Below, one piece after another: positions 2,448-64,000 of a DNA stretch of 64,000 bases. Origin of the DNA: a virus (lineage: Duplodnaviria; Heunggongvirae; Uroviricota; Caudoviricetes); IMG/VR virus record IMGVR_UViG_3300045988_162656. The stretch is one strand, 5' to 3'. Made by a program: the position numbers and the translations under genes. The stretch's first letter is position 1. The number at the start of each line of letters is the position of its first letter. The notes beneath the pieces were generated by a model that was given only the letters and a program-made list of their open reading frames with translations, had not been told where the DNA came from and did not search any database.

Positions 2448-3151
2448 CAGCGCACCTCACCATCTTTATGGCTGGAGTTAACTTCCGCCATTAAATGTCT
2501 GACGTAATCGACAAGAGAGCCACCTGGTGGAATCTGGCATTCCTCAACTAACTGGAAGTAGATATCCGCAGCATTACGTGTATTGCTACCCGCGCATATT
2601 CTTTCTTCCCGAAGTGCATGAAGCTCGTTGATCAAACGGTCACACTCTCCGTTACGCTGATCCACAACAGCCTCAAGTTCTGCGACGCGTTCACCTGGCG
2701 TCTTACCTTCTTCGCGTTGGATGGTAACGACGAAATCGCCAATTGCAGGGACGTTGTAATCCAGCTCAAGGTAGTTTTTGGCACCGCTGCGGACGAACTC
2801 ACCCGCGAACATGGTGGCGAACATCTCAGAGGCCATTGTGCTGTTGAAAAGTGACTCCAGATCTAACGGAGTCCCGGCAGCCAGAGCCTCTTTTGCTGTA
2901 TCCATTGTATCCATGAACCGATCAAACTCATTAGCGCGCTTTTCCAGGTCTTTCCATTGCTCGCTCCAACGTTTGGCAATGAAGTCTATGAATGTTTTCG
3001 CGGATTCATCAAAATCCCCCTCAAACTTAACGATGCCTTTATCAATAATGATCTGGCCTACCGCATCCTCTGCATAACCTTTCAATGTAAACTTGAAAGG
3101 AAAATCAGAATGGCCTGTGACGTTAAAATGCTCTAACTGGAGGTTGTTCAT
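2447..3151 (-). CDS. hypothetical protein
   Basis: ORF track; ATG preceded by AAGAGAAAAACAT. Confidence 0.5.
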   Translation of the reverse strand: MNNLQLEHFNVTGHSDFPFKFTLKGYAEDAVGQIIIDKGIVKFEGDFDESAKTFIDFIAKRWSEQWKDLEKRANEFDRFMDTMDTAKEALAAGTPLDLESLFNSTMASEMFATMFAGEFVRSGAKNYLELDYNVPAIGDFVVTIQREEGKTPGERVAELEAVVDQRNGECDRLINELHALREERICAGSNTRNAADIYFQLVEECQIPPGGSLVDYVRHLMAEVNSSHKDGEVR

Positions 3152-3212
3152 ATGTTTTTCTCTTATCGTTTAGTTATTACATTCTTACACAAATTAAGTA
3201 AGTATTTACCTA

Positions 3213-5676: not shown

Positions 5677-5903
5677 CTTACTGTATTGCCGTTAATAGTG
5701 ATAGTTGGTGTAGGTATATTTACATGGTTATCGTTATTTAAAGGCATCAATGAGCACACAGCATGTAATGATTTGCCAGGTGGTGGATTTGGGTAAGTCT
5801 TAGAGCCTGACGTGGTTGTAAATCGATCAAGAAAAAAAATAGGAGTAAGGAAGCCGGTAACGTTAACTCCCTTATTATTGTAGATCCCTGTACCGTATGC
5901 CAT
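5622..5903 (-). CDS. hypothetical protein in AT-rich island (possibly the N-terminal part of a frameshifted gene)
   Basis: ORF track; overlaps 5002..5676 by ~55 nt at a short TA repeat. Confidence 0.3.
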   Translation of the reverse strand: MAYGTGIYNNKGVNVTGFLTPIFFLDRFTTTSGSKTYPNPPPGKSLHAVCSLMPLNNDNHVNIPTPTITINGNTVSWSNLYKGLGSYIYTYWG

Positions 5904-5957
5904 TTTTCATCCTTGTTTTTATCAACATAATATGGCCGATCATGCGGCCATATCAGA

Positions 5958-6527
5958 TCAATTAGAGCTTTGAAAGGCTTTGTGTGGCTGTGTTGCGAGG
6001 TTATGTCGATGGCTTAACTCACGCATCATGTCTTCAAGGCGACTCTTTGTGTCGTCGAGTTGGTCAGCCATTGCTCCTAAAAGCTGACGAACTACCATCG
6101 GATCGTCGCTGTTTAGTGATGGCATTTTATAACCCGCCTGAGAAGACATCAGATTGAATGCTGACATCAACATCGTTAGAGAGGATTTAAGCCCGGCAAT
6201 TTCACGATCTTTGCTGGCAATAATCGTCTCACTTTTGTTACTGTCATGAGTTCCTTGAGTCTCGATCACCATATCCAAAGTCTCTTGCAACTTATCAGCT
6301 CTCTGTTTTTCAGCAAGATAATGAACACCGAAATGATGTGCTAAAGCTACAACCTGAGTTGGCTCTTCAAAGGTGGACTCAAAATTAAGTGCTGTAACCA
6401 CTCTCTCAAAAATGGAAACGTCTTCTATTCCTCGAAGAATGGCTAACATTTTGACAAGTTCATTAGCATCCATTTCTTCGAATAGGGCGTTTTGTTCATC
6501 AGCTATTGCTTTGCATTTCTCGCACAT
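5958..6527 (-). CDS. hypothetical protein
   Basis: ORF track; SD AAGGAAAACAT upstream, preceded by AAACAAGTTGTTTTC palindrome. Confidence 0.5.
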   Translation of the reverse strand: MCEKCKAIADEQNALFEEMDANELVKMLAILRGIEDVSIFERVVTALNFESTFEEPTQVVALAHHFGVHYLAEKQRADKLQETLDMVIETQGTHDSNKSETIIASKDREIAGLKSSLTMLMSAFNLMSSQAGYKMPSLNSDDPMVVRQLLGAMADQLDDTKSRLEDMMRELSHRHNLATQPHKAFQSSN

Positions 6528-6666
6528 ATGTTTTCCTTAATGCTTAAACAAGTTGTTTTCTTATTGGCTTTATTGTGATGTGGCATAAAAGGGGAGCAAG
6601 CTAAACGTAAAGGTGCAAACTCTCTATTTCGGTCAACGAAACACAATGGCCATTTGACCCTTGTCA

Positions 6667-6825
6667 TTAACACGTTGCTTTACGGACTAGCGGATAAGCG
6701 AAGTAGATCGCCAGACCAATGAGGACGCCATCAGAAATGACAGACATCATCTTTCCCGTAAAATCCACCAACACCGCCATCACCAGAAGAGCAATGACGG
6801 TCACAAGCCGGAATCTCTCAAGCAT
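6667..6825 (-). CDS. small hydrophobic protein (~52 aa), translationally coupled to the TerB-like gene
   Basis: Hand-translated (MLERFRLVTVIALLVMAVLVDFTG...); ATG overlaps upstream stop as TAATG; not in ORF track. Confidence 0.3.
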   Translation of the reverse strand: MLERFRLVTVIALLVMAVLVDFTGKMMSVISDGVLIGLAIYFAYPLVRKATC

Positions 6826-7250
6826 TAGAGATAAACATCCAGTGACAACTGAAGCGCCTGGGCGATCTTTTTCAGCGCCTGCTCTTCTGGTTCATCAATG
6901 CCGTCTTGGTCGGCAATATCAAGGCACAGACAAAGTACATCTACTGCATCATCAGTCCCGGCCACATCCGCCAGCTCACGTAAAGCCTGGGCATTAGCAC
7001 GGCGCGGTGAGGCTTCGTATTGAGCGCGGATATTGGCGCTCATCTGGGCAATCTCACCAGCAAAAGGAGAAAATGCAGGCAGAGCTGCAATTGTTTTCTC
7101 AAGAATGGAAATTTCTTTTGCATCGCATGTACCGTTGGCATAGGAGATCATGTACCCACCCCACACGGTGGCTTCAACCGCATCACGGTTCTCCATTTTT
7201 TTGACTTCGATAACTGCTTTACGAGTTTTCTTTTTGAAGAAACCTAACAT
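6825..7250 (-). CDS. TerB-like domain protein
   Basis: Overall resemblance to TerB-family proteins (helical, acidic C-terminal region DQDGIDEPEEQALKKIAQAL); conserved initiation region upstream. Confidence 0.5.
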   Translation of the reverse strand: MLGFFKKKTRKAVIEVKKMENRDAVEATVWGGYMISYANGTCDAKEISILEKTIAALPAFSPFAGEIAQMSANIRAQYEASPRRANAQALRELADVAGTDDAVDVLCLCLDIADQDGIDEPEEQALKKIAQALQLSLDVYL

Positions 7251-9774: not shown

Positions 9775-10368
9775 CTAAGCAGCCTTCTTTGATGGTCTTT
9801 TTTTCCTGATCACATTCGCAGGATCATACCCTCCCAGACTTTTCATGACGTCCAAAGGGATCTTGCTTATAGAGTGCCCAGCGTCCTGACAGAATCCTCG
9901 AAAAACAACGAGCATACTGCCACCGGGGTTGATGTTTACTTCTACCTGACCCAAATTGACGTCAGGCTCGACAAACGCTACGCGGCCACCAGACAGAATA
10001 ATCGTCTCATTCGCATACTCTGTTGCACGCTCATACCACTTTGTATCGAGGGATTGAGGAATTAGCATCACTGTAGTAACTCCGCGAGCCTGCTCACGTA
10101 TAGCAGCATCAATCCAGGGGGAGATTTTGGAGTAGGGTGGATTGAGGAAGGCAATTGTACCTGGCTGTCCCCATTCAGATTTCAAAGCATCACGCTCAAT
10201 GCCTATGAAATTAGGCAGCTTTGCGTTGTCCTTGTTGCAGGCAACGTCAACATCAAATGTCACTCCAAGATAACGTTGAATGGCAGAAAACAGCCAATCA
10301 GGTGTTCTCCAGAGGTCACGAAGAGAGTTGTCGCGCTTTCGCTGTTTGATTTTTTCGGCTGCAATCAT
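9775..10368 (-). CDS. phage-type DNA N6-adenine methyltransferase (Dam-like)
   Basis: WRTPDWLF motif and FLNPPYS catalytic motif. Confidence 0.75.
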   Translation of the reverse strand: MIAAEKIKQRKRDNSLRDLWRTPDWLFSAIQRYLGVTFDVDVACNKDNAKLPNFIGIERDALKSEWGQPGTIAFLNPPYSKISPWIDAAIREQARGVTTVMLIPQSLDTKWYERATEYANETIILSGGRVAFVEPDVNLGQVEVNINPGGSMLVVFRGFCQDAGHSISKIPLDVMKSLGGYDPANVIRKKRPSKKAA

Positions 10369-24753: not shown

Positions 24754-25398
24754 TTACAGCGCGTCAGTGGGCTTTTTACGCGCTGCGTTTATGCTTATGA
24801 CGCCAGCTTTTGGACGTGGGTCAACAAGGTTAAGCTCTTCTTCGCTGTGGTATTCGAGGTCGAACTCACGTTTTACATGTCTGATGTAGATTGCGGTGAG
24901 CAGGCTATCTTTGGTCAGAAAGTGTCCGTAGGATTTGCGGATCACTTCTTCTACCTTCTCGATTTTCTCACCACCCATACAGAGATGATTAAACCGGCTG
25001 TGTTTCCGCAACATTTCGTCTACTGGGCCTGAGTAAACCTTGTCTACTTTCCCAAAACGGATGATTTTTCCTGTGTCTGCGGATACGAGGCAAATCAGCT
25101 TGTCTGGTGATAAACGATCTCGCCACGTCACACCTGAACGGAGTGTGTTGAAGTAGGGGGCATCCAATCCGATGATCGGTTTACGAAATGCGAGTAATGG
25201 AACGTACCTGATGCAACTGTTTAAATGAAAATTCACACCAGCCTTATCAAGTTTAATTCTGGTTTCGTAGATCTGGCACTTCGCCGCTATACCGCAGATG
25301 TCACAAAGCAACTTCTGCTTATTCAGGTTGGAATTTGATTCGATAGTGTAGGAGCCGTCTTCAAGACGACGAACCCAGCGCGTGCGTTTTAGATCCAT
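24754..25398 (-). CDS. hypothetical protein (divergent from repA)
   Basis: ORF track; no recognised domain. Confidence 0.45.
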   Translation of the reverse strand: MDLKRTRWVRRLEDGSYTIESNSNLNKQKLLCDICGIAAKCQIYETRIKLDKAGVNFHLNSCIRYVPLLAFRKPIIGLDAPYFNTLRSGVTWRDRLSPDKLICLVSADTGKIIRFGKVDKVYSGPVDEMLRKHSRFNHLCMGGEKIEKVEEVIRKSYGHFLTKDSLLTAIYIRHVKREFDLEYHSEEELNLVDPRPKAGVISINAARKKPTDAL

Positions 25399-25439
25399 AT
25401 GTCATTTTTCTGTGATTGTTAGCCGAGGCAACGATAACC

Positions 25440-25705
25440 CACCAGGTGCGCCGAAGGTAGTAAATGCCTGTTTTAATTATTCACATATCCACAGGATAGA
25501 TCCTAATAAAGAGATCCATAGATAGATCCTTATATAGATCAAATAAGATCCCCGATCGCTGTAAGCCGCGCCACGACTGGTCTGAAGTCATGTTCATGTA
25601 TGCTGTCAGCGGTAATTGATAGTCTGTCAGCGGTTCACCGTATGCTGCCAACTGTTTTTGGTATTCTGTCAGCGGCAAATCAAGTATGCTGTCAGCGGTT
25701 GAATG
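25440..25705. promoter_or_regulatory. plasmid-type replication origin: DnaA-box-like site, GATC cluster and upstream iterons
   Basis: ATATCCACA (one mismatch to TTATCCACA) near 25485; five or six GATC within ~70 bp (25490-25560); about 5 copies/partials of TATGCTGTCAGCGGT at 25598-25700. Confidence 0.6.
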
Positions 25706-25719
25706 ACAAAGGTGTCCAC

Positions 25720-26814
25720 ATGTCCACAAAAAATAAAAAAGGTAAAAATAACAAAGAAGTAGAAGATAACATCGACAACTTTGAAGAAGGTTCCCTTGAA
25801 TTGTACACAGGGGAACTTGTCCCTAATAGCAACAATACAGTCCAACCAATTGCGTTGATGCGACTGGGGTTGTTCGTCCCCACGCTTAAGGGAACAAAAT
25901 ACAGTAAACGTAACAAGCCAAATGAGATCGATGCTTCAAAGGAGCTTGTCCAGCTCGAAGTAGCCCGTTCTGAAGGCTATTCCGATATCAAGATAACCGG
26001 TCCTCGTCTCGACATGGATCATGATTTCAAAACGTGGGTGGGCGTTGTGCGTTCGCTGGCAGAATACGGCGAACCTAACGGTCGTGTCGAGTTAAGCATC
26101 ACGAAATTTGCTAAGTTTTGTGGCTATCCATCGTCACAGATCCGCAAAACACTCCGCGACCGGCTTACAAACAGTCTTTTGAAGATCATGCGTACAACTC
26201 TGTCTTTCCAGAGAACGTATGAAGAAAAGAACGTCGACGGCTCTAACAAGATCTCGCTTCTGATGGTGCACCTCATCAATAGCGTGGACTACAACGAGCA
26301 GAAAGATACGGTGGTGTTCTATGCAGAACCGAAGCTGGCCGAACTATATCGCTTTGACCATAAGGTTCTTTTGCAGTTAAAGGTTATCAATAAGCTACCA
26401 CGCAAAGAAACAGCACAGGCTCTGTACACCTTCATCGAAAGTCTTCCAACCAAGCCTGCGCCGGTATCGCTTGCTCGATTGCGTGCGCGACTCAATTTGA
26501 GTAGCAGGAATGTCAGCTCGCAGAATCAGACTATACGTAACGGCTTAAAAGCTCTCCAAGATTTGGGCTATCTCGAATACAGCGAGATTAAGCGTGGGCG
26601 GTCGATCTATATCCAGATTCACAGCCGCAATCCAAAACTCAAAGTCGCACCGCCAAAACCTGAAGACATCGAACCCAAAAAACCAGATGAGAAAGCTGGG
26701 GAAATTGATGCCAAACAGAACATTATCAACAAGATAACCGAACTTTCGCAGAATTTGACGCCTGAAAATATCAAGATGATTGAGATCCTTTCCAATAGTC
26801 TCAAACTGCTTTGA
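25720..26814 (+). CDS. repA: iteron-binding plasmid replication initiator (RepA-like)
   Basis: Flanked by iteron arrays; ORF track start 25600 lies inside an iteron, so start set at ATG 25720 (MSTKNKK) with SD AAAGGTG. Confidence 0.7.
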   Translation: MSTKNKKGKNNKEVEDNIDNFEEGSLELYTGELVPNSNNTVQPIALMRLGLFVPTLKGTKYSKRNKPNEIDASKELVQLEVARSEGYSDIKITGPRLDMDHDFKTWVGVVRSLAEYGEPNGRVELSITKFAKFCGYPSSQIRKTLRDRLTNSLLKIMRTTLSFQRTYEEKNVDGSNKISLLMVHLINSVDYNEQKDTVVFYAEPKLAELYRFDHKVLLQLKVINKLPRKETAQALYTFIESLPTKPAPVSLARLRARLNLSSRNVSSQNQTIRNGLKALQDLGYLEYSEIKRGRSIYIQIHSRNPKLKVAPPKPEDIEPKKPDEKAGEIDAKQNIINKITELSQNLTPENIKMIEILSNSLKLL

Positions 26815-26931
26815 TATGCTGTCAGCGGTGAAATGTATGCTATCAGCGGCTATTTTTCTGAAAAGTATGCTGTGAACGGTTAAAGATATGCTACCAGCGG
26901 TATAGTGAGATGAACGTATGCTGTGAGCGGT
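26814..26931. repeat. iteron array (5 copies) downstream of repA
   Basis: (G/A)TATGCT(G/A)(T/C)(C/G)A(G/A)CGG(T/C) at ~26814, 26835, 26865, 26886, 26916; spacing alternates 21/30 bp. Confidence 0.8.
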
Positions 26932-27090
26932 AAATCATCTATCACCACTCAATGCTCTGTCATACCTCCCCAGTGGTTACTAACCTCGAAGAGTGCATTC
27001 CATATAGGTTTGCGCTCACTAACATTCTATTGCTATTGCGCTGATTGCTTGTAGTGAAAGGCATTTATTGCCTGCTACTCCCTGATAGAA

Positions 27091-27346
27091 CGTATGCTGT
27101 CAGCGGTGTTTTATTGAGGAATTTTTGTTTGGATATGCTATCAGCGGTAATTAATGGCATATGTCAGACATTCGTATGCTGCCAGCGGTAATTTTGTTCT
27201 GGTTATACCCATACCGGTACACATTATTCATGCAATGTCTTAAGTATGCTGTCAGCGGTAAAAAATCGAGTAAAGTATGCTGTGAGCGGTGAGATAGACT
27301 CTCGATATGCTATCAGCGGTAGTTGATTGTGTATGCTGTCAGCGGT
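27091..27346. repeat. second iteron array (about 7 copies), incA-like
   Basis: Same 16-bp repeat at ~27091, 27132, 27174, 27244, 27275, 27305, 27331. Confidence 0.8.
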
Positions 27347-27393
27347 GACGACTATGAAATATGACTGCGGAACGTGCCGCAGTCAGTTTGCAT

Positions 27394-27606
27394 TTAGTGT
27401 ATTTTCTTTAACAGACCCCAAAGTGTTCCGGCTTTTGTAGTCAGTTTTCCTGTTTCTGGATCGTACATACGCCATTCACGCCGCTGGTGGACGATATACC
27501 CATCTTCACGTTCCAGACGCTCAAGAATGCCAGGCTGCTTGAAACCCTTAGCACGCCAGTAGCCGCTTGTTTTCTCGATTTCCAGACCTGCCAGTGTTAA
27601 TGCCAT
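27394..27606 (-). CDS. hypothetical protein
   Basis: ORF track; start overlaps upstream stop. Confidence 0.4.
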   Translation of the reverse strand: MALTLAGLEIEKTSGYWRAKGFKQPGILERLEREDGYIVHQRREWRMYDPETGKLTTKAGTLWGLLKKIH

Positions 27607-43968: not shown

Positions 43969-44355
43969 ATGTCTGACAAAAACATTGAATTTATAGAAAG
44001 TCGCTATGCTGCTTTTATCGCAGGGCTGATTGAATCCTCACCTATGAGTCAGGCCCAAATAGCCAGACTTATTGGTTATAAAAATGCCAACAACCTTTCT
44101 TTAATTAAAAGTGGTAAAATTCCTTTGCCTATCGATAAGGTTCGTCCGCTGGCGTTGGCGCTGGGTATTGAGCCAAGTCGTCTTATGATGATGGTGCTGG
44201 AAGAACGCCAACCTGAACTCGCAGCATTTTTATACAAAGAAGGCACCGCTCCTCTTAACGAGGACGAAAAACAGGTTCTTGCTGCATATAACGAGCGATT
44301 CGGTAAAGAGAAAGGCGCATCACAAAAGGTTGTTGAGGCCATAAAGTCTCTATGA
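43969..44355 (+). CDS. helix-turn-helix DNA-binding protein
   Basis: HTH-like segment SQAQIARLIGYKNANNLSLIKSGK; perfect palindrome GGTAAGCACTTACC ~30 bp upstream of the start. Confidence 0.6.
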   Translation: MSDKNIEFIESRYAAFIAGLIESSPMSQAQIARLIGYKNANNLSLIKSGKIPLPIDKVRPLALALGIEPSRLMMMVLEERQPELAAFLYKEGTAPLNEDEKQVLAAYNERFGKEKGASQKVVEAIKSL

Positions 44356-45453
44356 AAAATTTAGACGAATAAGCTCTGTTGATAGACGATCTCCCTTGAA
44401 TTTGTGGTCAATTTCGTCTAAATCCGGTTGCTCTACGATTGATGCGATGTACGTTGAGAAACTTTCTAAGGCGTCTCGCATCTCGTCCATATAATCGTGC
44501 CGGTCGTAGACCCGATCTATCCCCTCAAGACTGTGGTTCATTATTTTGCGTGATACCTCCTGGCTTATACCTAATGCTGGGAAGTAACTACGCGCAGTAC
44601 GACGCAAATCTCGAGGTGTAAATGGCGCAAGCTCCATCAGTTCTGGTCGTTCCAGAATACGACGTAATGCCTGGGCTATTGCCACTTTAGACATAGGAAG
44701 GTCTTTCCCGATTTTTTTATTCGAAGGCACGAGCCACTGGCTGTCTTTACCGTATTCGAACAACTCTTCAATGCATGTGCGCATTAATGTGCTTAAAGGC
44801 AGCGAATGCTCACGTGCTGACTTGTTTCTCTTGCCTTGATTCCAAACTCCACGCTTAAGATTGAACTCACTTTTTTTAGCCCTCAGTACTTCGTCAGGTC
44901 GTCTTGCTGATACAAGACACAGCCTGGCCGCCCATTTTGTACCAGCGCACACATTGAAGTAGTCCCATATATTCCAGAACACCCATACCTCTGCGTCGGT
45001 CAGCTTCCGCTCGCGAGGTGTGGGCTTTGCGCCACCGGCAACTTTGTTTAGTGACATATCGTTTAACGGTGACACGTCTATCATCCCCTGGAAGGCGCAC
45101 CAGCTAAGGAACTGCTTCATCAGAGAGAAAACGCGGCGGCCCATAACAATTTTGCCATCCAATATTAGAGGGTTGACCAGTTGGTTAACCATGAACCTAT
45201 TAATGTCACTTACTTTTACATCAGCAATGTGCGGCAAAACATGTATCAAAATACAATGAACAGCGATCTCTGGCCGACGTCTGGTTATCAGCAGAGATAA
45301 GCGAGTGAATAACATGAATGCGTCCGAGAATATCATGTTATTGTTGATCTGTGAGATCATAATGGCCTGCATTTGAGATGCTCTTTCGAGATACTCAATT
45401 GCCTCTTTTGAGGTGTTTTCTGCTGCGCGTGCTCTGTCAAAGCTATTTTTCAT
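44350..45453 (-). CDS. int: tyrosine recombinase / integrase
   Basis: Catalytic-region motifs ARRPDEVLRAK, FTPRDLRRTARSY, MNHS...IDRVYDRHDY (C-terminal tyrosine). Confidence 0.75.
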   Translation of the reverse strand: MKNSFDRARAAENTSKEAIEYLERASQMQAIMISQINNNMIFSDAFMLFTRLSLLITRRRPEIAVHCILIHVLPHIADVKVSDINRFMVNQLVNPLILDGKIVMGRRVFSLMKQFLSWCAFQGMIDVSPLNDMSLNKVAGGAKPTPRERKLTDAEVWVFWNIWDYFNVCAGTKWAARLCLVSARRPDEVLRAKKSEFNLKRGVWNQGKRNKSAREHSLPLSTLMRTCIEELFEYGKDSQWLVPSNKKIGKDLPMSKVAIAQALRRILERPELMELAPFTPRDLRRTARSYFPALGISQEVSRKIMNHSLEGIDRVYDRHDYMDEMRDALESFSTYIASIVEQPDLDEIDHKFKGDRLSTELIRLNFS

Positions 45454-47799: not shown

Positions 47800-47886
47800 T
47801 GGCGGAGAGTAATGGAATCGAACCATCATCGCTTGCGCAATGGGACGGTTTTCAAGACCGCTTGAGCACCATGCTCCCTACTCTCC
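47800..47886 (-). tRNA. tRNA-Ser (anticodon UGA), type II
   Basis: Hand-folded: acceptor GGAGAGT/ACTCTCC, anticodon arm GCGGT-CTTGAAA-ACCGT, long variable arm, T-loop TTCGATT, encoded CCA; D-arm atypical. Confidence 0.7.
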
Positions 47887-48110
47887 GGCCGTTGTGGTGG
47901 CCGGTACTGAATCTCCGGCATACGGTGCAGCCAATTAGGACTACGGACGATCACCGCTCGCGAAAGGGAAGATTTGCGGCCGCATTTCCCTAACATCCAA
48001 GAAAGCTATCGCATTAGTCTGCGAATCCACCACAACGGTAAGATCACTACCTTTCGACCAGTCATTGTGCACATGAACGACGATTAACCGTAATGATCTT
48101 ATCGTTGTAT

Positions 48111-48186
48111 TGGTGCCGGTTAGCGGACTCGAACCGCTGACATCCTGCTTACAAGGCAGGCGCTCTACCAACTGAGCTAAACCGGC
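48111..48186 (-). tRNA. tRNA-Thr (anticodon UGU)
   Basis: Hand-folded cloverleaf: acceptor GCCGGTT/AACCGGC, D-arm GCTC-AGTTGGTA-GAGC, anticodon loop CTTGTAA, T-loop TTCGAGT, CCA. Confidence 0.85.
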
Positions 48187-48190
48187 AATT

Positions 48191-48277
48191 TGGTGGGGAG
48201 TGATGGAGTCGAACCACCCGAGTTGCAATGACAGTAGATTTACAGTCTACCCAGCTGCCCCTACGGACTAACTCCCC
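48191..48277 (-). tRNA. tRNA-Tyr (anticodon GUA), type II
   Basis: Acceptor GGGGAGT/ACTCCCC, anticodon arm GTAGA-CTGTAAA-TCTAC, long variable arm, T-loop TTCGACT, CCA. Confidence 0.8.
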
Positions 48278-48282
48278 TAAAT

Positions 48283-48357
48283 TGGCGATGGTGGGTGGAT
48301 TCGAACCACCGACCAGTTGGTTAACAGCCAACTGCTCTACCGCTGAGCTACACCATC
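48283..48357 (-). tRNA. tRNA-Asn (anticodon GUU)
   Basis: Acceptor GATGGTG/CACCATC, D-arm GCTC-AGCGGTA-GAGC, anticodon arm GTTGG-CTGTTAA-CCAAC, T-loop TTCGAAT, CCA. Confidence 0.85.
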
Positions 48358-56136: not shown

Positions 56137-57210
56137 GTGGATATTGTCACCATGCGCATGAATAGACTTCCAGGATATGGCCTTCCCGAACTGGCTTTTT
56201 GGCCTCAGCCTAAATATGAACGGAATAAATGGTCGATGTTCTGTCTGAAACTCCGTAATGATGGAACCCTTGCTTGGTATCGGCGATATGTTGATCGTGG
56301 TATGCCAAACCACGCTGTTGATGACGACTACGATAACTATCCTGAAGCAAGAAAAGCGGCATTAGAGCTGAATAAAAACGTGAGCTTTGACATTGAAAAA
56401 CTTCCTCTATCTATGTTTCAAAAGAAGTCATTGCGTTTGAAAGTTGACAAAGCACTCAAAGCCAAATCACGTCTCATGGATGAAGAGTATATAATGCTCA
56501 ACGAAGCAATTAAGGCACACGCCAACGATCCGCGAGTGACATTAAATGAGTTAATAATTAACCCAGATTACGAAACTTTGCGTCAACCCCTTTTTGACGT
56601 GCTAAGCGAGATGCCTTACTTACATTTTGTTTTTCTTCCCAAATTCCAAGTTTCACTTCAACTCGTTGCTCCTAACACTTGGGAATGTTCATATAACAAC
56701 AAAGCTAAGACAGCGAAGATCTGCTACCAAGAACGCATAGCCAGAGGTTTTGGTTTATCAGGTGCTGCACATTGGGGAAAAACAAAAGCGACTATTCGCT
56801 CAATGCTTCTGCCGCGTGCTAACCGGTTACTGCAACTCGCCAGCGTAAAAAGAATGCTGGATGAAGCTCTCAGGAATGGGCAAAAGGTACTGGTTGTTGG
56901 CAACTTTGTTTTCTGGTTTGAGGACAAAAATCAGGTAGGTTGGAGTGTTAAAGTTGCTAGCGAAAGCGAAACCACCTCAAGAGGCAATACGCTCTGGAAA
57001 GAAGGAACTATCATTTCAAAAAATCACGGTCGAATTGTCGTGCTGCCGTATACAAAAGAAAACGGTAAACATGTAAAAGGTTATACCAAGAATGCCCCTA
57101 ACGACGGCAATGCAATTCCGAGACATAAGGATGAGTATGTTGAGTTGCCCTTTGAAATTTTGGATGGTGACTTGATGTTCAGTCTGTTCGGTGAGCTTAA
57201 CTACGAATAG
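56137..57210 (+). CDS. hypothetical protein (plus-strand, opposite to surrounding operons)
   Basis: ORF track; start ambiguous (GTG 56137 or ATG 56152/56158); preceded by a 6-codon ORF with strong SD. Confidence 0.45.
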   Translation: MDIVTMRMNRLPGYGLPELAFWPQPKYERNKWSMFCLKLRNDGTLAWYRRYVDRGMPNHAVDDDYDNYPEARKAALELNKNVSFDIEKLPLSMFQKKSLRLKVDKALKAKSRLMDEEYIMLNEAIKAHANDPRVTLNELIINPDYETLRQPLFDVLSEMPYLHFVFLPKFQVSLQLVAPNTWECSYNNKAKTAKICYQERIARGFGLSGAAHWGKTKATIRSMLLPRANRLLQLASVKRMLDEALRNGQKVLVVGNFVFWFEDKNQVGWSVKVASESETTSRGNTLWKEGTIISKNHGRIVVLPYTKENGKHVKGYTKNAPNDGNAIPRHKDEYVELPFEILDGDLMFSLFGELNYE

Positions 57211-57270
57211 CTTTCATAGAACGAAATATTTCTAAGGCTGTCCAATGCAGACCAGCCTTAGAGATTTATA

Positions 57271-57630
57271 TCAACCTTTCTTCATTAACTCGCGTTTAAT
57301 TTCATCGGTACGCATCGTGACATCGGCAGCAGTGATCGCCTCGTTAAGCTTCACGATGTCCTCGATTTCCTGCGGTGACTTCTCTGCCAGATGGAAAATA
57401 GCAGCACGAATCACATCAGAGCGGGTGAATTTCTCGAAGCGAGGGATGAACTTCATCATCTCCAGCAGTTCGAAGTATTCGTCCTCCAGTGACATTGTGC
57501 GGCTTTTAATTTTCTCTTTGCCACGAGTCGGGCGTCCCTGTGGTCTGACTGGTTGGCGCAAAGGAGTTGTGTTCTTAGCCGGTGCATCAGACTCTTTGCG
57601 CTTTGCTAGGTCACCCATTTTCATGGACAT
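57271..57630 (-). CDS. ribbon-helix-helix partition protein (ParG/ParB-like)
   Basis: C-terminal RHH-like segment FTRSDVIRAAIFHL; immediately downstream of parA, TAATG overlap. Confidence 0.5.
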   Translation of the reverse strand: MSMKMGDLAKRKESDAPAKNTTPLRQPVRPQGRPTRGKEKIKSRTMSLEDEYFELLEMMKFIPRFEKFTRSDVIRAAIFHLAEKSPQEIEDIVKLNEAITAADVTMRTDEIKRELMKKG

Positions 57631-58298
57631 TATTCTTCTTCCTCCAGACTCAACAGATAATCTACAAATTCTTCAAACTCGGCTTCCGCCTTTTTGTCGC
57701 GCTCGCTACCGGTCATTTCAAAGATAGAACGACCAGACTCTTCCGCATCATCATAGACGTTGCGGTTATATAGATTGACTGGCGCAGACTCGATGCCAAA
57801 CGTCTCAACAATCTCTTTAGCCGCCAGAATGCGAGACACTTGTGATGGCAAAGCCGGGCACTGGTTCATGACCGCGCGGACCTTCACTTTATCGTTTACA
57901 TTGCGAACATTGTCGATAATAGGATCGATGTCACGTAAAGATTTCAAATCACGACGCTTAGGACGCAGCGGGATAATGATAACGTCAGCCATCAGCATCG
58001 CTTGTCGCTGAATTTCGGAGTCGAAGCCACCAGCATCTACCACTACAAACTCAGCTCTACCCTGAAGCGATTTTAGGTGCTTAATGATGTCATCCTGAAC
58101 GTATGCAAAAGGAATCAGCTCAAGGTCTTCGTTCTGTCGACGGTCTTCACACCAGCTCGTTGTCGTGCGCTGAATATCTATATCGGTAATATAAACCTTC
58201 TTCTTCTTTTTGACTTTCAGGCAAACGGCAATTTGCTGGGCAACGGTGGATTTGCCAGGCCCGCCCTTTGTGCCGCCAACCACAAAGATCTTGGTCAT
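57630..58298 (-). CDS. parA: ParA-family partition ATPase (small, type Ib)
   Basis: Deviant Walker A GGTKGGPGKST; 222 aa. Confidence 0.8.
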   Translation of the reverse strand: MTKIFVVGGTKGGPGKSTVAQQIAVCLKVKKKKKVYITDIDIQRTTTSWCEDRRQNEDLELIPFAYVQDDIIKHLKSLQGRAEFVVVDAGGFDSEIQRQAMLMADVIIIPLRPKRRDLKSLRDIDPIIDNVRNVNDKVKVRAVMNQCPALPSQVSRILAAKEIVETFGIESAPVNLYNRNVYDDAEESGRSIFEMTGSERDKKAEAEFEEFVDYLLSLEEEE

Positions 58299-58424
58299 TG
58301 GAGAGTTTCCTTTGCGTCTATTATTATTGTCTGAAACAACTTGTTTTCTTATATGTGATATAGCCTAAATGCCTACGGCTGCTGTGTAAAGGTTTAATGA
58401 TAGGTACATAGATTTGGTAAGGAC

Positions 58425-58456
58425 TTAATAACAAAAAACCCGCCGTAGCGGGTTTA
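58425..58456 (-). terminator. rho-independent terminator upstream of the par operon
   Basis: Stem AAACCCGC/GCGGGTTT then TTTGTTATT on minus strand. Confidence 0.75.
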
Positions 58457-58460
58457 GGAA

Positions 58461-59237
58461 TTAGTGGTTGGTAGACCTGGCATCAAATGTTGTAACGCCC
58501 ACTTCAATGTGGCGGTCTTCTTTGGAGATGATGGTGAGAATCTGACTAGATGGGTCTATGCTGACAGCCATAGGGTTCCAGTGACGTAACTGAGCCTCGC
58601 TGTTCAATAGCAGCGCATCCCACGGTTTGACGCCATTCTGCCCAATACCACCTTCAACAAGGACATCTATAAATTCTTTATTTAAATTGTCATAGATTTG
58701 GACACGACCGACCAAAAGCATACCTACAGCCCAAATTCTGGCACCGTAAACCGTCTGATGGTCATCACATACTACATGGTCATGCCAATTGAGAAGAAAA
58801 TTGTAAACTCTTCTAGCAAGTCCCTTTTGTTCCTTTGAAGGGGTTACAAATGCCCCTTTAATCTGGACCCCAAGGTGAGAGCCTTTTTGTGAGCGAAACT
58901 GGAATCGTTTGTAGACGAACCTGGCGATCTGAATGCCGTCATCATCTTCTTGCTCATCACCAACTAATTCACGAACACTATGAACTATCTCTTCTTCTGA
59001 ATGCCCCTGCTCGTCAAGATCCATTGCATGTTCTTGAAGCCAATCTGCATCAGGGTCGCCTACAAATGACACTGTCAAACAGTAATCATAATTAGACCCG
59101 ATCAAGGACCACTCTGTGAGCCGTAAAACAGAAAAATCAGAGTTAACCATGTAGCCAACTCTGATTTTCTCTCTTGCTTCACATTCAGGGAAATCAGACA
59201 GTACTTTTGAATACTCTGCTATGAATGATGGTGACAT
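58461..59237 (-). CDS. hypothetical protein
   Basis: ORF track; followed by a strong terminator. Confidence 0.5.
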   Translation of the reverse strand: MSPSFIAEYSKVLSDFPECEAREKIRVGYMVNSDFSVLRLTEWSLIGSNYDYCLTVSFVGDPDADWLQEHAMDLDEQGHSEEEIVHSVRELVGDEQEDDDGIQIARFVYKRFQFRSQKGSHLGVQIKGAFVTPSKEQKGLARRVYNFLLNWHDHVVCDDHQTVYGARIWAVGMLLVGRVQIYDNLNKEFIDVLVEGGIGQNGVKPWDALLLNSEAQLRHWNPMAVSIDPSSQILTIISKEDRHIEVGVTTFDARSTNH

Positions 59238-59636
59238 TTAGTTAGCAAGCCGCATATCCGTAGATGAATCCAGTTTCGCTATTTTAACATCTACGCGGTA
59301 TTTATCTTTGATAAATTTAGCTATTTTGCTTTCAATCTCATAGAAAGCATCCTGTTCACAACGCACAACATCGGGAAACTGTTTTTCTGGCTTAACAAGA
59401 AAACGTAACCGATTGTTGAGCACCATCATTTCTGCAAACAATTTGATGGTAAACTTGCCTTCTTCAACGTCACTTTTAAGGTTAACGATGAAACGCTGAT
59501 CCTTAAGCATACCCGGTTTGTTCATTTCACGAATTTGGAGCGAGTCATTCCAATGCCGCAACGGAACCGATGCGATCATCTTGGTACAGTCTCTTATCGT
59601 CTGAATAGAACGAGATGCGTTAAGCGCAGTATGCAT
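59238..59636 (-). CDS. hypothetical protein
   Basis: ORF track; SD AAGGTGGAAAC. Confidence 0.5.
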   Translation of the reverse strand: MHTALNASRSIQTIRDCTKMIASVPLRHWNDSLQIREMNKPGMLKDQRFIVNLKSDVEEGKFTIKLFAEMMVLNNRLRFLVKPEKQFPDVVRCEQDAFYEIESKIAKFIKDKYRVDVKIAKLDSSTDMRLAN

Positions 59637-60214: not shown

Positions 60215-60907
60215 TTAGACCATCCCTTTCTGGTGTTTTCTTACCTGCGACCAGGCAATGAATCCTGCCACAACAATAGTGGCAATACCGAAGATGATGC
60301 GTACTGTATCCCCACTAGAGATATGACCTTGTGCTTTATCCATAGCAGCGGAAACCTGCGGCATAACATCGGCCAGCTGCGCCAGACCAATACCTGCTGT
60401 AACAGTTGCGCCTGCTGTTTCTTTAGTTACAGGAACAGCCTTCACGGTTTTCACCGGCTTAACGACGCCAGCTCGACGCAGACCTTCCTCAATAACTTCT
60501 GCCGCATACCAGGTGTTCAGCGTTTTTAGCGGACCTCGCCCATTCTCATGGCGAATGATTGCCTCAACCAAAGGTCGAAGAATGTCGTAATCATGCAGAT
60601 CGATAATCATGTCTGCGGTCACACCAACGGCTTTAGACACCTCATTAATGTAGGCGTCAGTGTTGTTTTCATTCGGCGGTGCCCAACGTTCAATAACTTC
60701 ACGAATGGTATCGATACTTGAGCCGTCTTTTGCGCGACGTTTGTCGTGGTAGGTAATTAGAGTCACCGCCAGCGCACGAATCCCCCAAACAGGGTCTTTA
60801 AACGTACAAAAGCGCGGTTCGTCTGGATTCGCAACCAGACCTTGCCACGGTGATCCTTTATCAAGATTACCGGGGTTATTATTACGAATGCCTCTCGGAG
60901 TCTTCAT
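60215..60907 (-). CDS. putative cell-wall hydrolase (endolysin candidate) with C-terminal membrane anchor
   Basis: Sits directly upstream of the Rz/Rz1 pair; N-terminal GIRNNNPGNL block; C-terminal hydrophobic helix IIFGIATIVVAGFIAW; function inferred from context only. Confidence 0.4.
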   Translation of the reverse strand: MKTPRGIRNNNPGNLDKGSPWQGLVANPDEPRFCTFKDPVWGIRALAVTLITYHDKRRAKDGSSIDTIREVIERWAPPNENNTDAYINEVSKAVGVTADMIIDLHDYDILRPLVEAIIRHENGRGPLKTLNTWYAAEVIEEGLRRAGVVKPVKTVKAVPVTKETAGATVTAGIGLAQLADVMPQVSAAMDKAQGHISSGDTVRIIFGIATIVVAGFIAWSQVRKHQKGMV

Positions 60908-60920
60908 CCTCAATCTCCTG

Positions 60921-61244
60921 TTATTGCAGTCCATTTTTTACGCCATACGCGGCTAACCCCAAAAGCAGTGCGGTAATAATGAACGACGTTATTTTAGAAA
61001 CAATGCCGCCAAAGAACCCACTGGAGATGGAATCTAACCGGTTAAGGAGTTTGTCAAGGTTGGAGTGTTGAATACTATGTTGCGCCGGGGTCATATCACC
61101 AAAGTAGGTTTTCAGCTGATCATTGACCTCCTGGCCAATTTCTTCACGTATCTCTTTACCTAATTTGCCAACAACCTCCCTAGCAACGATCGCGGCAATA
61201 CGCTCAACATGCTCTGTTGTAACGCCCGCCATCTCGTTCGACAT
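60921..61244 (-). CDS. small membrane protein (holin or lysis-regulator candidate)
   Basis: C-terminal TM helix; SD GGAGGAAAC; start set at MSNEM; ORF track 60921..61265 trimmed. Confidence 0.4.
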   Translation of the reverse strand: MSNEMAGVTTEHVERIAAIVAREVVGKLGKEIREEIGQEVNDQLKTYFGDMTPAQHSIQHSNLDKLLNRLDSISSGFFGGIVSKITSFIITALLLGLAAYGVKNGLQ

Positions 61245-61376: not shown

Positions 61377-61958
61377 TTACTCTGCTGGTATTGTTGGCCA
61401 CTCAATATCAGGTGCAGTTGATGTATCAACACGGTTCAGCAACACCCGATACTTTTTCCAGGCTTCCAGCAATGAGGTTTCTTCCTCCGTTGCAATTTCC
61501 AGATCTGCAGCATCCTGAAGCGGCGCAATATGCTCACTGGCTACCTGCATCAGGTTGTTTTTTGTTTCTTCCGCCTCCCGGATCCGGAACAGTTTTTCTG
61601 CTTCCGTATCCTTCACCCAGGCTGTGCCGTTCCACTTCTGAAACTCCCCTTCCGGCGATAACCAGGTAACATTTTCCGGTAACGGACCGAGTTCAGAAAT
61701 AAATAACTCGTCCCCTGACGCTACGTCATAAACCGTTTTACCCCGATGGTCTTCAACGAGATGCCACGATGCCTCATCACTGTTGAAAACAGCCACAAAG
61801 CCAGCCGGAATATCTGGCGGTGCAATATCGGTACTGTTTGCTGGCAGACCTGTATGAGGCGGAATATATGCGTCACCTTCACCAATAAATTCATTAGTTC
61901 CGGCCAGCAGATTATAAATTTTTATGGTCCGTGGTTGTTCACTCATTCTGAATGCCAT
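61377..61958 (-). CDS. tfa: tail fibre assembly protein (lambda Tfa-like)
   Basis: N-terminus [20 protein letters not shown] and C-terminal [21 protein letters not shown] match my recollection of lambda-family Tfa proteins. Confidence 0.85.
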
Positions 61959-64000
61959 TATGCAAGCCTCACAATATAGTTAAATGCGATGTTTTTGACG
62001 GTGTTTTCCGCGTTACCAGCAGCGTTAACGGTGATGGTGTGTCCGTGTGAGCCAATCGCAACGGAGTGCGTATGAGCACCAATACCGACAGTATGTGCAT
62101 GTGCGCCTGCGCTTGCAGCAGTGCCGGACAGCGAGTGGGTATGAGCACCATCTGATGATGTCTTCCCTGCATTACGAGTCTGGCCACTACCGCTTGTTGT
62201 GCTCATAATCCCCGCGCTTAGATTTGAAATCGCGGTATAACCATTAGGGAAAATGCTCGTGTTCGTGCCACCAAATGCACCGGAACTCTTGTGTTGGTGC
62301 GCACCGGCACTATTTGCAGTCCCGCTAATACTATGGGTATGCGCCCCGGTGTTATTCGTGGATTTGGTTCCGTAATCAAACGACGATGTGTTTTTCGTCC
62401 CCAAATCCGTACTGGATGCGCTGGCGCTGTGGGTGTGCGATTTAATGCCGTCCTGTTCCTGAGACAATACGGCACGACCACTGGCGGGTTTGCCCTTAAT
62501 CGTCCAGCCACGCATATCAGGGATCACGCCTGACGGATAAGCCGCTGCAAGTTTCGGGTATGCAGATTTGTCAAAAGTCTGCCCCTGCATCAGGGCATAA
62601 CCAGACGGAACGGTATCTGATGGCCACGGGATTGGTGCACCGACTGGGTAGCTTTCTGGTGGAAGATTTTTCGAGGTATAAACTTCTGCCCAGTCTTCCT
62701 CAAAACCATAACCGTCTCTTGAAGAACGGTAGAACAGACCACCATTTCTGTAATGCGCCTTCATCTGCAGGGTCCGGCAACTTCCGACTCCGGTATAGAA
62801 GTTAACCAGAATATAGCTGTCGCCAGAGCGGGTGACTTTGTAAGCGCCTGATTCGGCATTCCAGGGAACGGCTCCATCCGAATCCGCATAAGCCCCCGTC
62901 GAACGTCGGGCAAATGCACCAATATTTTCCGGCGTGAGGTTAATATCCGCCGAGCCATCAAACTTAACACCGTTAATTTTTGGGGCTGCCGCAAGTTTCG
63001 TCGCGGTATCGGCGTTCCCCTTCAGTGCCCCGGTGATCCCATCAGTAACAGACAACGGACCTGAAATAGTCCCTCCAGTCGTTGGCAGCGCTCCAATATC
63101 TGATGGTGTAGGTTTCTGATGTGAGCTATACATCGTATAAACAACACCATAGGTAACGCTGGAAGGCTTACTCGCTGAATATGTTGGCGAGGTATAAACA
63201 GAAACTGACGCATTTGCAGTACAATCCCAATGGATATTTACACTCGTCGCATAATTGCCAATCTCAACGTAAATATCATATGTATCGCCGGATGTGTTGA
63301 TCCAGGCGAAATTCGTTAATCCGACGGCTGTACGCTTCCACAAAGCCCCGGTAATTCCTTTGGGGTTTCCATTGCCTGCTCGTAGAACCAGTTCTGAAAT
63401 GCCTGCCTGATGTGGGGAACCGACGTTGTAACCAGCGCCACCAATCAATGCGATGTAAACGATGGAACTCGCTTGTGGCATGGTAACCGTAGCCAGTTTG
63501 AACCACCCAGCCCCGCCAGAGAAAGACATCGTTACTGAATTTAAAGTACCAATATCTTTCGGCGTTAATGTTATATCCGCAGTCAATGCTTTTCCGTTAA
63601 CTTTTCGGTTAGATGGCACCCTGCTATTCGCATTGTCATTGGCTGCTTTAACTGCTTTTGGCGTTGCGGCCAGCGATTCACTGGTGCTATCAACAGCACT
63701 GCTAAGTTTCACAACACCTTTAGTTGTAAGGCTTGCGTCTTCCATCGCAACTGCACCGGCAATCTCTTCAGCACGATCAGCAGCAGCTTCCGCACGGGTC
63801 GCAGCGGATTCAGCAGTAGTTTTGCTCTGAGATGCTGCCGTCGCACTGCCTGCCGCCTCTGTTGCCTTCGTGGATGCTGTCGTGGCGCTGCCCTTCGCTG
63901 CGGACGCTTGTCTGGTCGCCTCATCTTTTGAAGCTGACGCCGATGATGCCGATGACGCCGCCGAACTGGCGGACGATGCGGCAGGCGGTTCCGCAGCCAG
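61958..64000 (-). CDS. stf: side tail fibre protein (lambda Stf-like), 5' end outside window
   Basis: Frame stays open to the window edge (ORF track starts at an internal Met, 63745); conserved [31 protein letters not shown] block; Gly/Ser/Thr-rich repeats with SAGAH..H motifs. Confidence 0.85.

Follow-up and report, generated by a model that had tools for sequence, protein, structure and literature searches.

The question raised by this locus is whether the repeats and the initiator-type gene at positions 25440 to 27390 make up a replicon by which a phage genome is kept as a plasmid, and, if so, how such a replicon would limit its own copy number. The window, that is, the whole stretch of 64,000 nucleotides analyzed here, encodes a tail fibre, a tail-fibre assembly protein, an endolysin-family protein, a DnaB-like helicase, a primase, and a Pol III alpha-like protein. 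Since tail fibre, endolysin-family, and replisome genes lie in the same window, the label "phage-plasmid" applied in the earlier note is correct, and the SSU5 supergroup is characterized by this combination, on one element, of RepA and ParA with phage genes for structure, lysis, and replication. The best explanation of the region, which we hold with high confidence, is that an SSU5-supergroup phage-plasmid is maintained as a plasmid by this replicon, which is an iteron replicon of the P1/RepFIB type. Its parts follow one another as in the curated P1 record: DnaA site, GATC/Dam sites, iterons, repA, and control iterons.

Comparison with deposited sequences showed that the region from 25400 to 27400 is 100% identical to that of p09EL50 of Escherichia coli O104:H4 (2009EL-2050) and near-identical to those of about 120 E. 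coli and Shigella plasmids of roughly 110 kb and of the deposited phage PhiR41_1. The RepA of pECOH89 was reported to be identical to that of p09EL50 (PMC3999498), and plasmids of ~110 kb highly similar to pECOH89 have been typed as IncFIB(H89-PhagePlasmid) (PMC12838234). The full match to p09EL50, the RepA identity, and this typing together place the element, as a known member, in the SSU5 phage-plasmid supergroup, and its well-formed P1/RepFIB-type replicon is already catalogued for E. coli and Shigella phage-plasmids (SSU5-like, e.g., p09EL50 and pECOH89; MOB-suite rep_cluster_488). No difference from these two was found inside the replicon; outside it, p09EL50 departs from the window by small indels and by swapped accessory genes around the par operon. 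Among complete E. coli genomes, the replicon was found in 120 of 5426, on a plasmid every time and never on the chromosome, and this exclusively plasmid location is, like the sequence anatomy and the homologies, a direct observation. The same origin and repA are also carried by a 34.7-kb non-phage plasmid, which, being typed as multi-replicon, is no proof that the module suffices alone. The genes next to the replicon, a 214-aa and a 70-aa open reading frame, are conserved as in SSU5, with synteny around repA.

The left edge of the origin is formed by two abutting DnaA boxes, TTATTCACA and ATATCCACA (25477 to 25493, + strand), which match TTWTNCACA with 0 and 1 mismatches, respectively, and hold the position of the annotated tandem DnaA site of P1 oriR. 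Adjoining them is an A+T-rich GATC cluster (25494 to 25558) with six Dam sites, mostly in (A/T)AGATCC repeats; it is the probable unwinding and methylation-sensing region, and in the alignment the five Dam sites of P1 oriR fall opposite it. Its six GATC sites, lying within 59 bp (25499 to 25557), are the densest such cluster of the window (background, 0.27 per 64 bp), and the A+T content of the stretch is 64.6%, versus 54% for the window. Both the DnaA-box-like site and the GATC cluster had been pointed out in the earlier note and are confirmed by these matches. A G+C-rich spacer (GCCGCGCCACG.CTGG; 25559 to 25598), conserved in the alignment with P1 oriR and with the Klebsiella relative pJN2-26, leads from the GATC cluster to five origin iterons (25599 to 25699, + strand; consensus R-TATGCTGTCAGCGGT), the equivalent of P1 incC, which start at 25599, 25620, 25641, 25662, and 25685 upstream of repA, with a spacing of 21/21/21/23. 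Over 129 aligned columns, the origin core made up of the DnaA boxes, the GATC cluster, and the G+C-rich spacer has 68% DNA identity to P1 oriR. Two further 9-mers, GTGTCCACA and ATGTCCACA (25711 to 25728, + strand), which overlap the repA start codon, are candidates only for weak DnaA boxes; they were read from the sequence, match at 7/9 positions each, and thus fall below the one-mismatch threshold of the DnaA-box scan. The equivalent place in pJN2-26 reads GTATCCACA. A consensus promoter scan from 25400 to 27450 found nothing on the + strand that would make a convincing sigma-70 promoter of repA, and a promoter overlapping the iterons, as the route of autorepression, is something that we infer; by our own reading of the sequence, the hexamers of P1 PrepA have no conserved counterparts at the equivalent position and spacers.

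The predicted iteron-binding initiator of 364 aa is encoded by repA (25720 to 26814, + strand) and was assigned from Pfam Rep3_N, PHROGs, and its homology to P1 RepA. The ATG at 25720 is the likely start; the RefSeq model of 404 aa (RepB) begins at an ATG within iteron 1. RepA is a plasmid initiator of the Rep_3/WH1 class (Pfam Rep3_N, 37.5 bits against a cut-off of 22.4 bits) and matches phrog_775 (5e-133). By BLASTP it is 46% identical to P1 RepA (E 3e-86, covering P1 residues 20 to 284 of 286), and the identity is 48% to SSU5 RepA, ~50% to IncFIB RepA (>5000 plasmid records), and 85% to a Klebsiella phage-plasmid RepA. This similarity to plasmid initiators, along with the oriR-like origin core and the phage genes around it, bears out the earlier note's reading of a P1-type iteron replicon inside a phage-plasmid. 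A sequence search against PDB chains, RepE included, returned no match at E values up to 1, which leaves RepA without a direct structural anchor. The idea that the C-terminal tail of RepA is specific to phage-plasmids was dropped, because a comparable tail ends the IncFIB RepA from a conjugative plasmid; the tail is thus a RepFIB trait absent from P1 RepA.

With up to 3 mismatches allowed, the 15-mer TATGCTGTCAGCGGT occurs in 17 copies from 25599 to 27346, every one of them on the + strand, while 1.46 matches would be expected in the whole 64-kb window and the observed count was reached in 0 of 100 shuffles. The counts in the earlier note, five iterons upstream and 12 downstream in two arrays, proved exact (5; 5 + 7). 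Control array 1 (26815 to 26931, + strand), equivalent to the start of P1 incA, consists of five iterons starting at 26815, 26836, 26866, 26887, and 26917, the first of them one base past the repA stop codon, and its 21/30/21/30 rhythm recurs in pJN2-26. After a step of 176 bp, control array 2 (27093 to 27346, + strand) follows with seven iterons, starting at 27093, 27134, 27175, 27245, 27276, 27306, and 27332. Since these are spaced by 41/41/70/31/30/26, the alternating 21/30 spacing that had been ascribed to both arrays holds for array 1 and does not extend to array 2. All 12 downstream iterons are direct repeats, and 14 of the 15 iteron spacings come close to a whole or near-whole number of helical turns; only the last (26 bp) departs from this, being half a turn out of phase. 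In their presence and in their position from the repA stop codon onward, the 12 iterons have the makeup of a copy-control set, a function that they would exercise by analogy with related systems.

Among seven close relatives, 3 of 180 columns varied in the iteron cores compared with 20 of 352 in the spacers (Fisher p = 0.04), and most of the substitutions fell in the iteron-free spacer between the two arrays (26932 to 27092), which gave no Rfam match and differs in length in pJN2-26. The sequence of the iteron tracks the RepA lineage: it is shared with the Klebsiella relative whose RepA is 85% identical, whereas SSU5 and P1 have other iterons. Klebsiella replicons of the pKpn type, which have this iteron too, are accordingly predicted to be incompatible with the present one. 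The 70-bp gap of array 2 holds a one-mismatch DnaA-box match, TTATACCCA, at 27203. Possible relics of SSU5-type iterons or DnaA boxes in the gaps 26932 to 27092 and 27190 to 27244 were rejected as chance: a weight matrix derived from 21 SSU5 iterons gave its highest gap score, 8.8 bits, at 26964, whereas genuine sites score 18.9 bits or more, and five positions elsewhere in the window score higher than 26964. The right edge of the replicon is marked by a nine-pair G+C-rich hairpin, an inverted repeat that is terminator-like on both strands (27362 to 27385). At a permissive threshold, Rfam returned no RNA family between 25300 and 27500, and there is therefore no sign of antisense-RNA control over that interval.

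Among the related known systems, the oriR/incC-repA-incA region of P1, whose layout is mirrored here, has in common with the present replicon the tandem DnaA boxes, the GATC cluster, the five 21-bp origin iterons, and control iterons from the repA stop onward. In the curated P1 record there are 5 Dam sites, the five incC iterons are spaced at 21/21/21/22, and the incA spacing is 30/31/40/41 bp. The P1 iteron is GATGTGTGCTGGAGGGAAA, as opposed to TATGCTGTCAGCGGT here, and incA has nine iterons in one array, 3 direct and 6 inverted, whereas 12 direct ones in two arrays are present here; since SSU5, too, has mixed orientations, the pairing geometry may differ from that of either. RepA has additional N-terminal residues and a 55-residue C-terminal tail relative to its P1 counterpart, and P1 parABS directly follows incA, while here a small ParA is encoded 30 kb away. 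The pMT1 replicon is said to have been described early on as P1/RepFIB-like. RepFIB of IncF plasmids (P307, F, pO157), whose RepA is ~50% identical and ends in a tail of similar design, likewise has a DnaA site and a rep gene between upstream origin iterons and downstream control iterons. Its host element is a conjugative plasmid rather than a phage, and its iteron sequence is different, so the incompatibility specificity presumably differs as well. In experiments on FIB, the downstream iterons by themselves sufficed to displace the plasmid, acting as an inhibitory element, and the upstream ones had no such effect (PMC11983097). SSU5, pHCM2, and Cyrano (pLF82) have the same genomic position, neighbors, and architecture, with a RepA of 48% identity that also has the tail, but their iteron is TATCCACTGTAGTGAG, their downstream iterons lie in both orientations, and upstream of the SSU5 repA the origin core is apparently duplicated, unlike here. 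For the related phage-plasmid Cyrano, ~5.5 copies per chromosome were reported (PMC9928086). The ori2-repE-incC region of mini-F is a distant relative, similar at the family level only, that follows the same logic: its initiator belongs to Rep_3, and its origin iterons are complemented by a control array downstream, which acts through handcuffing (cited in PMC11983097).

The only ParA found, of 222 aa, is encoded at 57630 to 58298 (- strand), ~30 kb from the replicon, and was assigned to the partition ATPases by Pfam (MipZ/AAA_31/CbiA) and phrog_164 (ParA-like); its match to NCBIfam ParA_partition has an E value of 1.9e-33, yet lies below the family cut-off. The ParA/MinD-type domain spans the full protein and no N-terminal DNA-binding domain is present, as in type Ib. 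The ParA stop codon overlaps by one base the start of a 119-aa partner (57271 to 57630, - strand; phrog_5111, function unknown), presumed to be the centromere-binding protein, and the overlap is consistent with one operon. The partner had no Pfam match at E values up to 10, no PDB relative, and in NCBIfam a weak, sub-threshold match to the aCcr1 family over residues 54 to 79. A single-sequence AlphaFold2 model of low confidence (pLDDT 66.6) places helices at residues 48 to 59, 70 to 84, and 86 to 118, and the modeled helix-helix core is compatible with a ribbon-helix-helix (RHH) protein, the strand of which would form only in the dimer. Thus, of the ParA/RHH pair proposed earlier at 57.3 to 58.3 kb, the ATPase and its partner stand, and the RHH fold is a candidate only. 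A search for centromere repeats from 57000 to 58700 gave no convincing family, just short two-copy matches. A large P1-type ParA with ParB and parS is absent after the control arrays, where small convergent open reading frames are found instead; the partition system is a small, type Ib-like ParA system and not a P1-type parABS. The window also encodes a Dam-family N6-adenine methyltransferase (9775 to 10368, - strand; Pfam PF05869 Dam, E 5.4e-38), by which the element may itself methylate the GATC cluster of its origin.

Protein binding, origin opening, autorepression, and handcuffing at this replicon we infer by homology with P1 oriR/incA and with FIA and FIB of the F plasmid. RepA monomers would bind the five phased origin iterons and host DnaA the tandem boxes on the left flank, and the two proteins together would open the adjacent A+T-rich GATC repeats for loading of the host helicase and replisome. 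The six GATC sites would make initiation sensitive to Dam methylation, and once the origin had fired, the hemimethylated DNA would be sequestered. When it occupies the origin iterons, RepA probably represses its own gene as well. The 12 downstream iterons would not fire; they would hold RepA, titrating the initiator, and pair with the origin iterons, whether in cis or across two sister copies. This handcuffing-type control, already suggested in the earlier note and extended here from P1, F, and FIB, would together with titration stop replication at a low copy number and make related replicons incompatible. The small ParA and its partner, 30 kb off, would segregate the copies, and lytic replication is presumably the task of the replisome genes that the phage itself carries.

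A different role for the downstream arrays, which we consider rather unlikely, is that they mainly titrate RepA as a sink, with little origin pairing, or that array 2 (27093 to 27346) is a little-contributing vestige of a duplicated origin. The 12 downstream sites against five at the origin would suit a sink, and duplications do happen in this replicon family, as the apparent tandem duplication of the SSU5 origin core shows; the box at 27203 could be a remnant of such an event, although neither a GATC cluster nor a G+C-rich spacer adjoins array 2. Not every downstream iteron can be essential, since natural variants occur in which 3 or 4 of them are missing, but the length of the 12-iteron layout is constant in 120 of 124 records. 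Handcuffing is, moreover, the accepted model for P1, F-FIA, and FIB, and the FIB downstream iterons displace the plasmid in trans (PMC11983097).

That the region instead comprises a lytic-cycle origin and its initiator is highly improbable. It does lie amid phage DNA-metabolism genes, and PHROGs places RepA in a phage family labeled "replication helicase"; yet RepA is homologous to the initiators of the plasmid mode of P1 (oriR, not oriL/repL) and of IncFIB, and a non-phage plasmid carries the same module. For lytic growth, the element encodes a helicase, a primase, and a polymerase of its own, and control iteron arrays, which limit copy number, would oppose runaway lytic replication. We give practically no credence to the reading that the repeats serve in recombination, as att sites or as end arrays of a transposon or integron, instead of binding the initiator. 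Two equivalent repeats are named attL and attR in the GenBank entry for Klebsiella phage pJN2-26, labels that resemble an automated direct-repeat call, and a tyrosine recombinase is encoded in the window at 44350 to 45453, with no recombinase adjoining the repeats. Integrated copies numbered 0 in 5426 E. coli genomes, and the repeats are 17 phased direct copies that flank an initiator gene and lie beside DnaA boxes and a GATC cluster with homology to P1 oriR.

The replicon for plasmid maintenance, as preferred here, leaves current understanding unchanged, and the new additions are small: the conservation of iteron cores above that of spacers, and rare natural variants with 8, 9, or 13 downstream iterons, formed by iteron-bounded indels, of which array 2 is the site of those of +26 bp and -87 bp. 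The variants in question are p204A1-109K, PhiR41_1, and p4_0.2. A tentative suggestion, more doubtful than probable, is that the number of control-array iterons is a natural, reversible copy-number dial, with the seven iterons of array 2 as its adjustable part; the observed versions with 8, 9, 12, and 13 iterons would arise by inter-iteron recombination or slippage. A 2026 preprint reportedly describes phage-plasmid-mediated heteroresistance and discusses copy-number increases, which may bear on such a dial.

The map corrects annotations, namely, the 404-aa RepB model that starts inside an iteron and the iterons labeled attL and attR, and its base-level detail of origin and control iterons helps in the design of curing cassettes made of downstream iterons only, as done for FIB. 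The replicon is also a marker for typing tools that detect these phage-plasmids. It decides whether phage-plasmids can coexist in one cell and how many copies are kept, and, because it sets the copy number, it also sets the dosage of cargo such as the CTX-M-15 beta-lactamase on pECOH89-like elements. If the iteron-number dial is true, the variants would differ in copy number and hence in blaCTX-M-15 dosage, lysogen stability, and strength of incompatibility.

A 15-mer search of the 64-kb window for TATGCTGTCAGCGGT, with three mismatches allowed and shuffled sequence as a control, gave 20 matches, a number that the shuffles (mean, 1.46) never reached. Seventeen of these lie at 25599-27346, all on the + strand, and only three further, weak matches were found outside; the consensus becomes 16 bp once the preceding purine is included. 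Five copies precede the repA ORF (spacings of 21, 21, 21, and 23 bp), five form a first downstream array starting one base past the repA stop codon (21, 30, 21, and 30 bp), and seven form a second one after a 176-bp step (41, 41, 70, 31, 30, and 26 bp). An earlier note on this DNA had counted these 5 upstream and 12 downstream iterons in two arrays exactly, while the alternating 21/30 spacing it described holds in the first downstream array but not in the second. Apart from the final 26 bp, all spacings are near two, three, four, or other near-whole helical turns. The DnaA-box-like site and GATC cluster that it had also reported turned out to be two abutting DnaA-box matches (25477-25493), left of the upstream iterons, and six GATC sites in 59 bp to the right of the boxes, the densest such cluster in the window, in a stretch with 65% A+T versus 54% across the window. 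No Rfam family matched the replicon region, which argues against RNA-based control.

We then compared the origin with those of P1, the Klebsiella phage-plasmid pJN2-26, and SSU5. The 130-bp core, comprising the DnaA boxes, the GATC repeats, and a G+C-rich spacer (GCCGCGCCACG.CTGG), was 68% identical in DNA alignment to P1 oriR, 79% to the Klebsiella relative, and 70% to SSU5; on sequence grounds, the origin is homologous to P1 oriR, beyond mere analogy. The curated P1 record shows the same order of parts, namely, a tandem DnaA site, five Dam sites, the incC iterons (five, at 21-22 bp), repA, and incA, the first of whose nine iterons lies exactly at the repA stop codon and whose spacing is 30/31/40/41 bp. 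In contrast, the P1 iterons differ in sequence from those of the window, and the nine in incA form one array (three direct, six inverted), whereas the 12 control iterons here form two and are all direct; those of SSU5 are of mixed orientation. The Klebsiella element, with an 85%-identical RepA, shares with the window both the 15-mer and the 21/21/21/23 spacing at the origin, while SSU5, with a 48%-identical RepA, has a different repeat, TATCCACTGTAGTGAG. Across these elements the iteron sequence tracks the RepA lineage. SSU5 itself has two apparent tandem origin cores upstream of repA (1256-1500 and 1640-1900 of its record), each with a DnaA-box region, GATC repeats, and iterons, the second being 67.5% identical to the first and having decayed GATC sites. 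The genes flanking the replicon are a conserved pair found in SSU5, pJN2-26, and the window: one for a 214-aa protein (phrog_2105; 24754-25398, - strand), diverging from the origin, and one for a 70-aa protein (phrog_804; 27394-27606, - strand), called "Cre-associated" in some records.

Comparison with P1, SSU5, and the deposited phage PhiR41_1 indicates that the best start of repA is ATG 25720, giving a 364-aa product. An AAAGG Shine-Dalgarno sequence lies seven bases upstream, the homology to P1 RepA starts at residue 32 of this short form, and this form is also the one annotated in PhiR41_1 and SSU5. The 404-aa RefSeq "RepB family" model takes as its start an ATG within iteron 1 and extends across all five origin iterons (25600-25719), a frame that stays open only because the iterons have no stop codons in it. 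In Pfam, RepA scores above the curated threshold for Rep3_N, the WH1 domain of iteron-plasmid initiators. Its comparison with plasmid initiators, a check named in the earlier note, revealed 46% identity to P1 RepA (P1 residues 20-284 of 286; E 3e-86), 48% to SSU5 RepA, about 85% to Klebsiella phage-plasmid RepA (e.g., that of pJN2-26), and about 50% to RepFIB initiators in >5000 plasmid records, mostly of conjugative IncF plasmids. P1 RepA lacks the 55-residue C-terminal tail found here (residues 310-364; 26647-26811), a Pro/acidic linker followed by an amphipathic helix (...LTPENIKMIEILSNSLKLL), while SSU5 RepA and conjugative IncFIB RepA have tails of similar design. Since the conjugative IncFIB protein has one, the tail is by this comparison a trait of the family rather than of phage-plasmids alone.

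The phage-genome setting proposed earlier was borne out by genes for a tail fibre (61958-63745), its assembly protein (61377-61958), an endolysin-family protein (60215-60934) with small membrane proteins on either side, and a replisome-type set (DnaB-like helicase, primase, and Pol III alpha-like polymerase), along with ribonucleotide reductase, thymidylate synthase, an SbcCD-like nuclease, and ligase. A strong Rfam IS009 match (225 bits; 61417-61615, - strand) lies inside the tail-fibre assembly gene, and the family model therefore probably mirrors conserved tfa coding sequence. A tRNA cluster (47800-48357, - strand) comprises Thr(tgt) and Asn(gtt), detected by Rfam and ARAGORN, and Ser(tga) and Tyr(gta), detected by ARAGORN only. 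The element's own Dam-family adenine methyltransferase (9775-10368, - strand; PF05869) could maintain methylation of the GATC cluster at the origin without relying on the host; P1 also has its own methylase. By analogy with Cre/lox, which resolves plasmid dimers in P1, the tyrosine recombinase (44350-45453, - strand) may resolve dimers rather than integrate the element, integrated copies of which were found in 0 of 5426 E. coli genomes.

The ParA/RHH pair of the earlier note was confirmed as to ParA (57630-58298), a small Walker-type partition ATPase, while the RHH nature of its 119-aa partner is unproven: searches gave no family assignment, and the evidence consists of a weak aCcr1-family match, a low-confidence helix-helix model, and an RHH-compatible pattern around residues 44-84. 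No centromere repeats were found at the par operon. Judged by its genes, the system is not P1-like, since in P1 incA is immediately followed by a large ParA, ParB, and parS. On either side of the par operon, the accessory genes of the window (56137-57210, + strand; 58461-59636, - strand) encode a 357-aa ORF and 258- and 132-aa ORFs without assigned function, whereas those of p09EL50, an E. coli phage-plasmid, encode a P-loop NTPase and a DUF1778/GNAT toxin-antitoxin pair; this difference suggests a cargo-exchange hot spot.

By homology with P1, F-FIA, and FIB, RepA monomers would fill the five origin iterons, DnaA would bind the tandem boxes, and the A+T-rich GATC repeats would open; Dam methylation, whether by a host enzyme or by the one that the element encodes, and sequestration of hemimethylated DNA would space out initiations. 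With RepA bound, the 12 downstream iterons would pair with those of the origin, on the same copy or on another, and would also take up initiator, both leading to low copy number and incompatibility. Autorepression of repA is assumed only, since a consensus scan of the replicon region located no repA promoter. We consider this mechanism likely, everything past anatomy and homology being inferred for the window element. In experiments on FIB replicons, the downstream block of iterons is enough by itself to displace a resident plasmid, an effect that the upstream block lacks (PMC11983097). Cyrano, an SSU5-type phage-plasmid, has a copy number of about 5.5 per chromosome and yields virions on induction (PMC9928086).

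Instead of the handcuffing suggested earlier, the downstream iterons may act by pure titration. That the replicon is a lytic origin is unlikely, as its RepA is homologous to plasmid-mode initiators, copy-limiting arrays are present, and the element has a separate replisome. The repeats could also be taken for attachment sites, two equivalent RepA iterons in the GenBank record of pJN2-26 (1878-1897 and 3148-3167) being labelled attR and attL; these labels are, however, almost certainly a mis-annotation arising from an automated direct-repeat call.

Natural variation of the control iterons was seen at 27245-27346 of the window, with 12 downstream iterons as the reference layout. The exact downstream length is kept in 120 of 124 plasmid records, and in the three length variants examined, p4_0.2 (+26 bp, 13 downstream iterons), PhiR41_1 (-87 bp, 9 iterons; 4061 of its record), and p204A1-109K (-257 bp, 8 iterons), every indel is flanked by an iteron at both ends. 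Among seven close relatives, variable columns numbered 3/180 in iteron cores versus 20/352 in spacers (Fisher p = 0.04).

At 100% identity, the 2-kb region matches p09EL50 (E. coli O104:H4) and several plasmids of E. coli and Shigella sonnei, typed by MOB-suite as rep_cluster_488; its identity to PhiR41_1 is 99.3%. According to its announcement, pECOH89 has the same RepA as p09EL50, with 48% identity to the pLF82 protein (PMC3999498), and ~110-kb plasmids highly similar to pECOH89 are typed by PlasmidFinder as IncFIB(H89-PhagePlasmid) (PMC12838234). Recognised in 2014 as Rep_3/RepFIB "phage-like plasmids analogous to P1" (PMC4270462), these elements are now assigned to the SSU5 phage-plasmid supergroup (PMC7969092; bioRxiv 10.1101/2025.09.12.675607). 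The phage-plasmid reading of the earlier note is supported by the P1/RepFIB-type initiator, the oriR homology, and the phage genes, with minor corrections, and the replicon is that of a known family, the finding being already known; no published iteron map was found in the literature searched, and the map follows directly from the replicon family.

The replicon was present in 120 of 5426 complete E. coli genomes, plasmid-borne every time and never chromosomal. The 34.7-kb mobilizable plasmid pCFSAN004177P_01 has perfect tandem DnaA boxes and a GATC cluster, with ParAB, CcdAB, and a resolvase alongside its replicon. It is without phage genes, and at 5690-7220 it has the origin core and iterons of the window together with a repA 86% identical to the one here. 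The module is therefore common to phage-plasmids and ordinary plasmids and moves between them.
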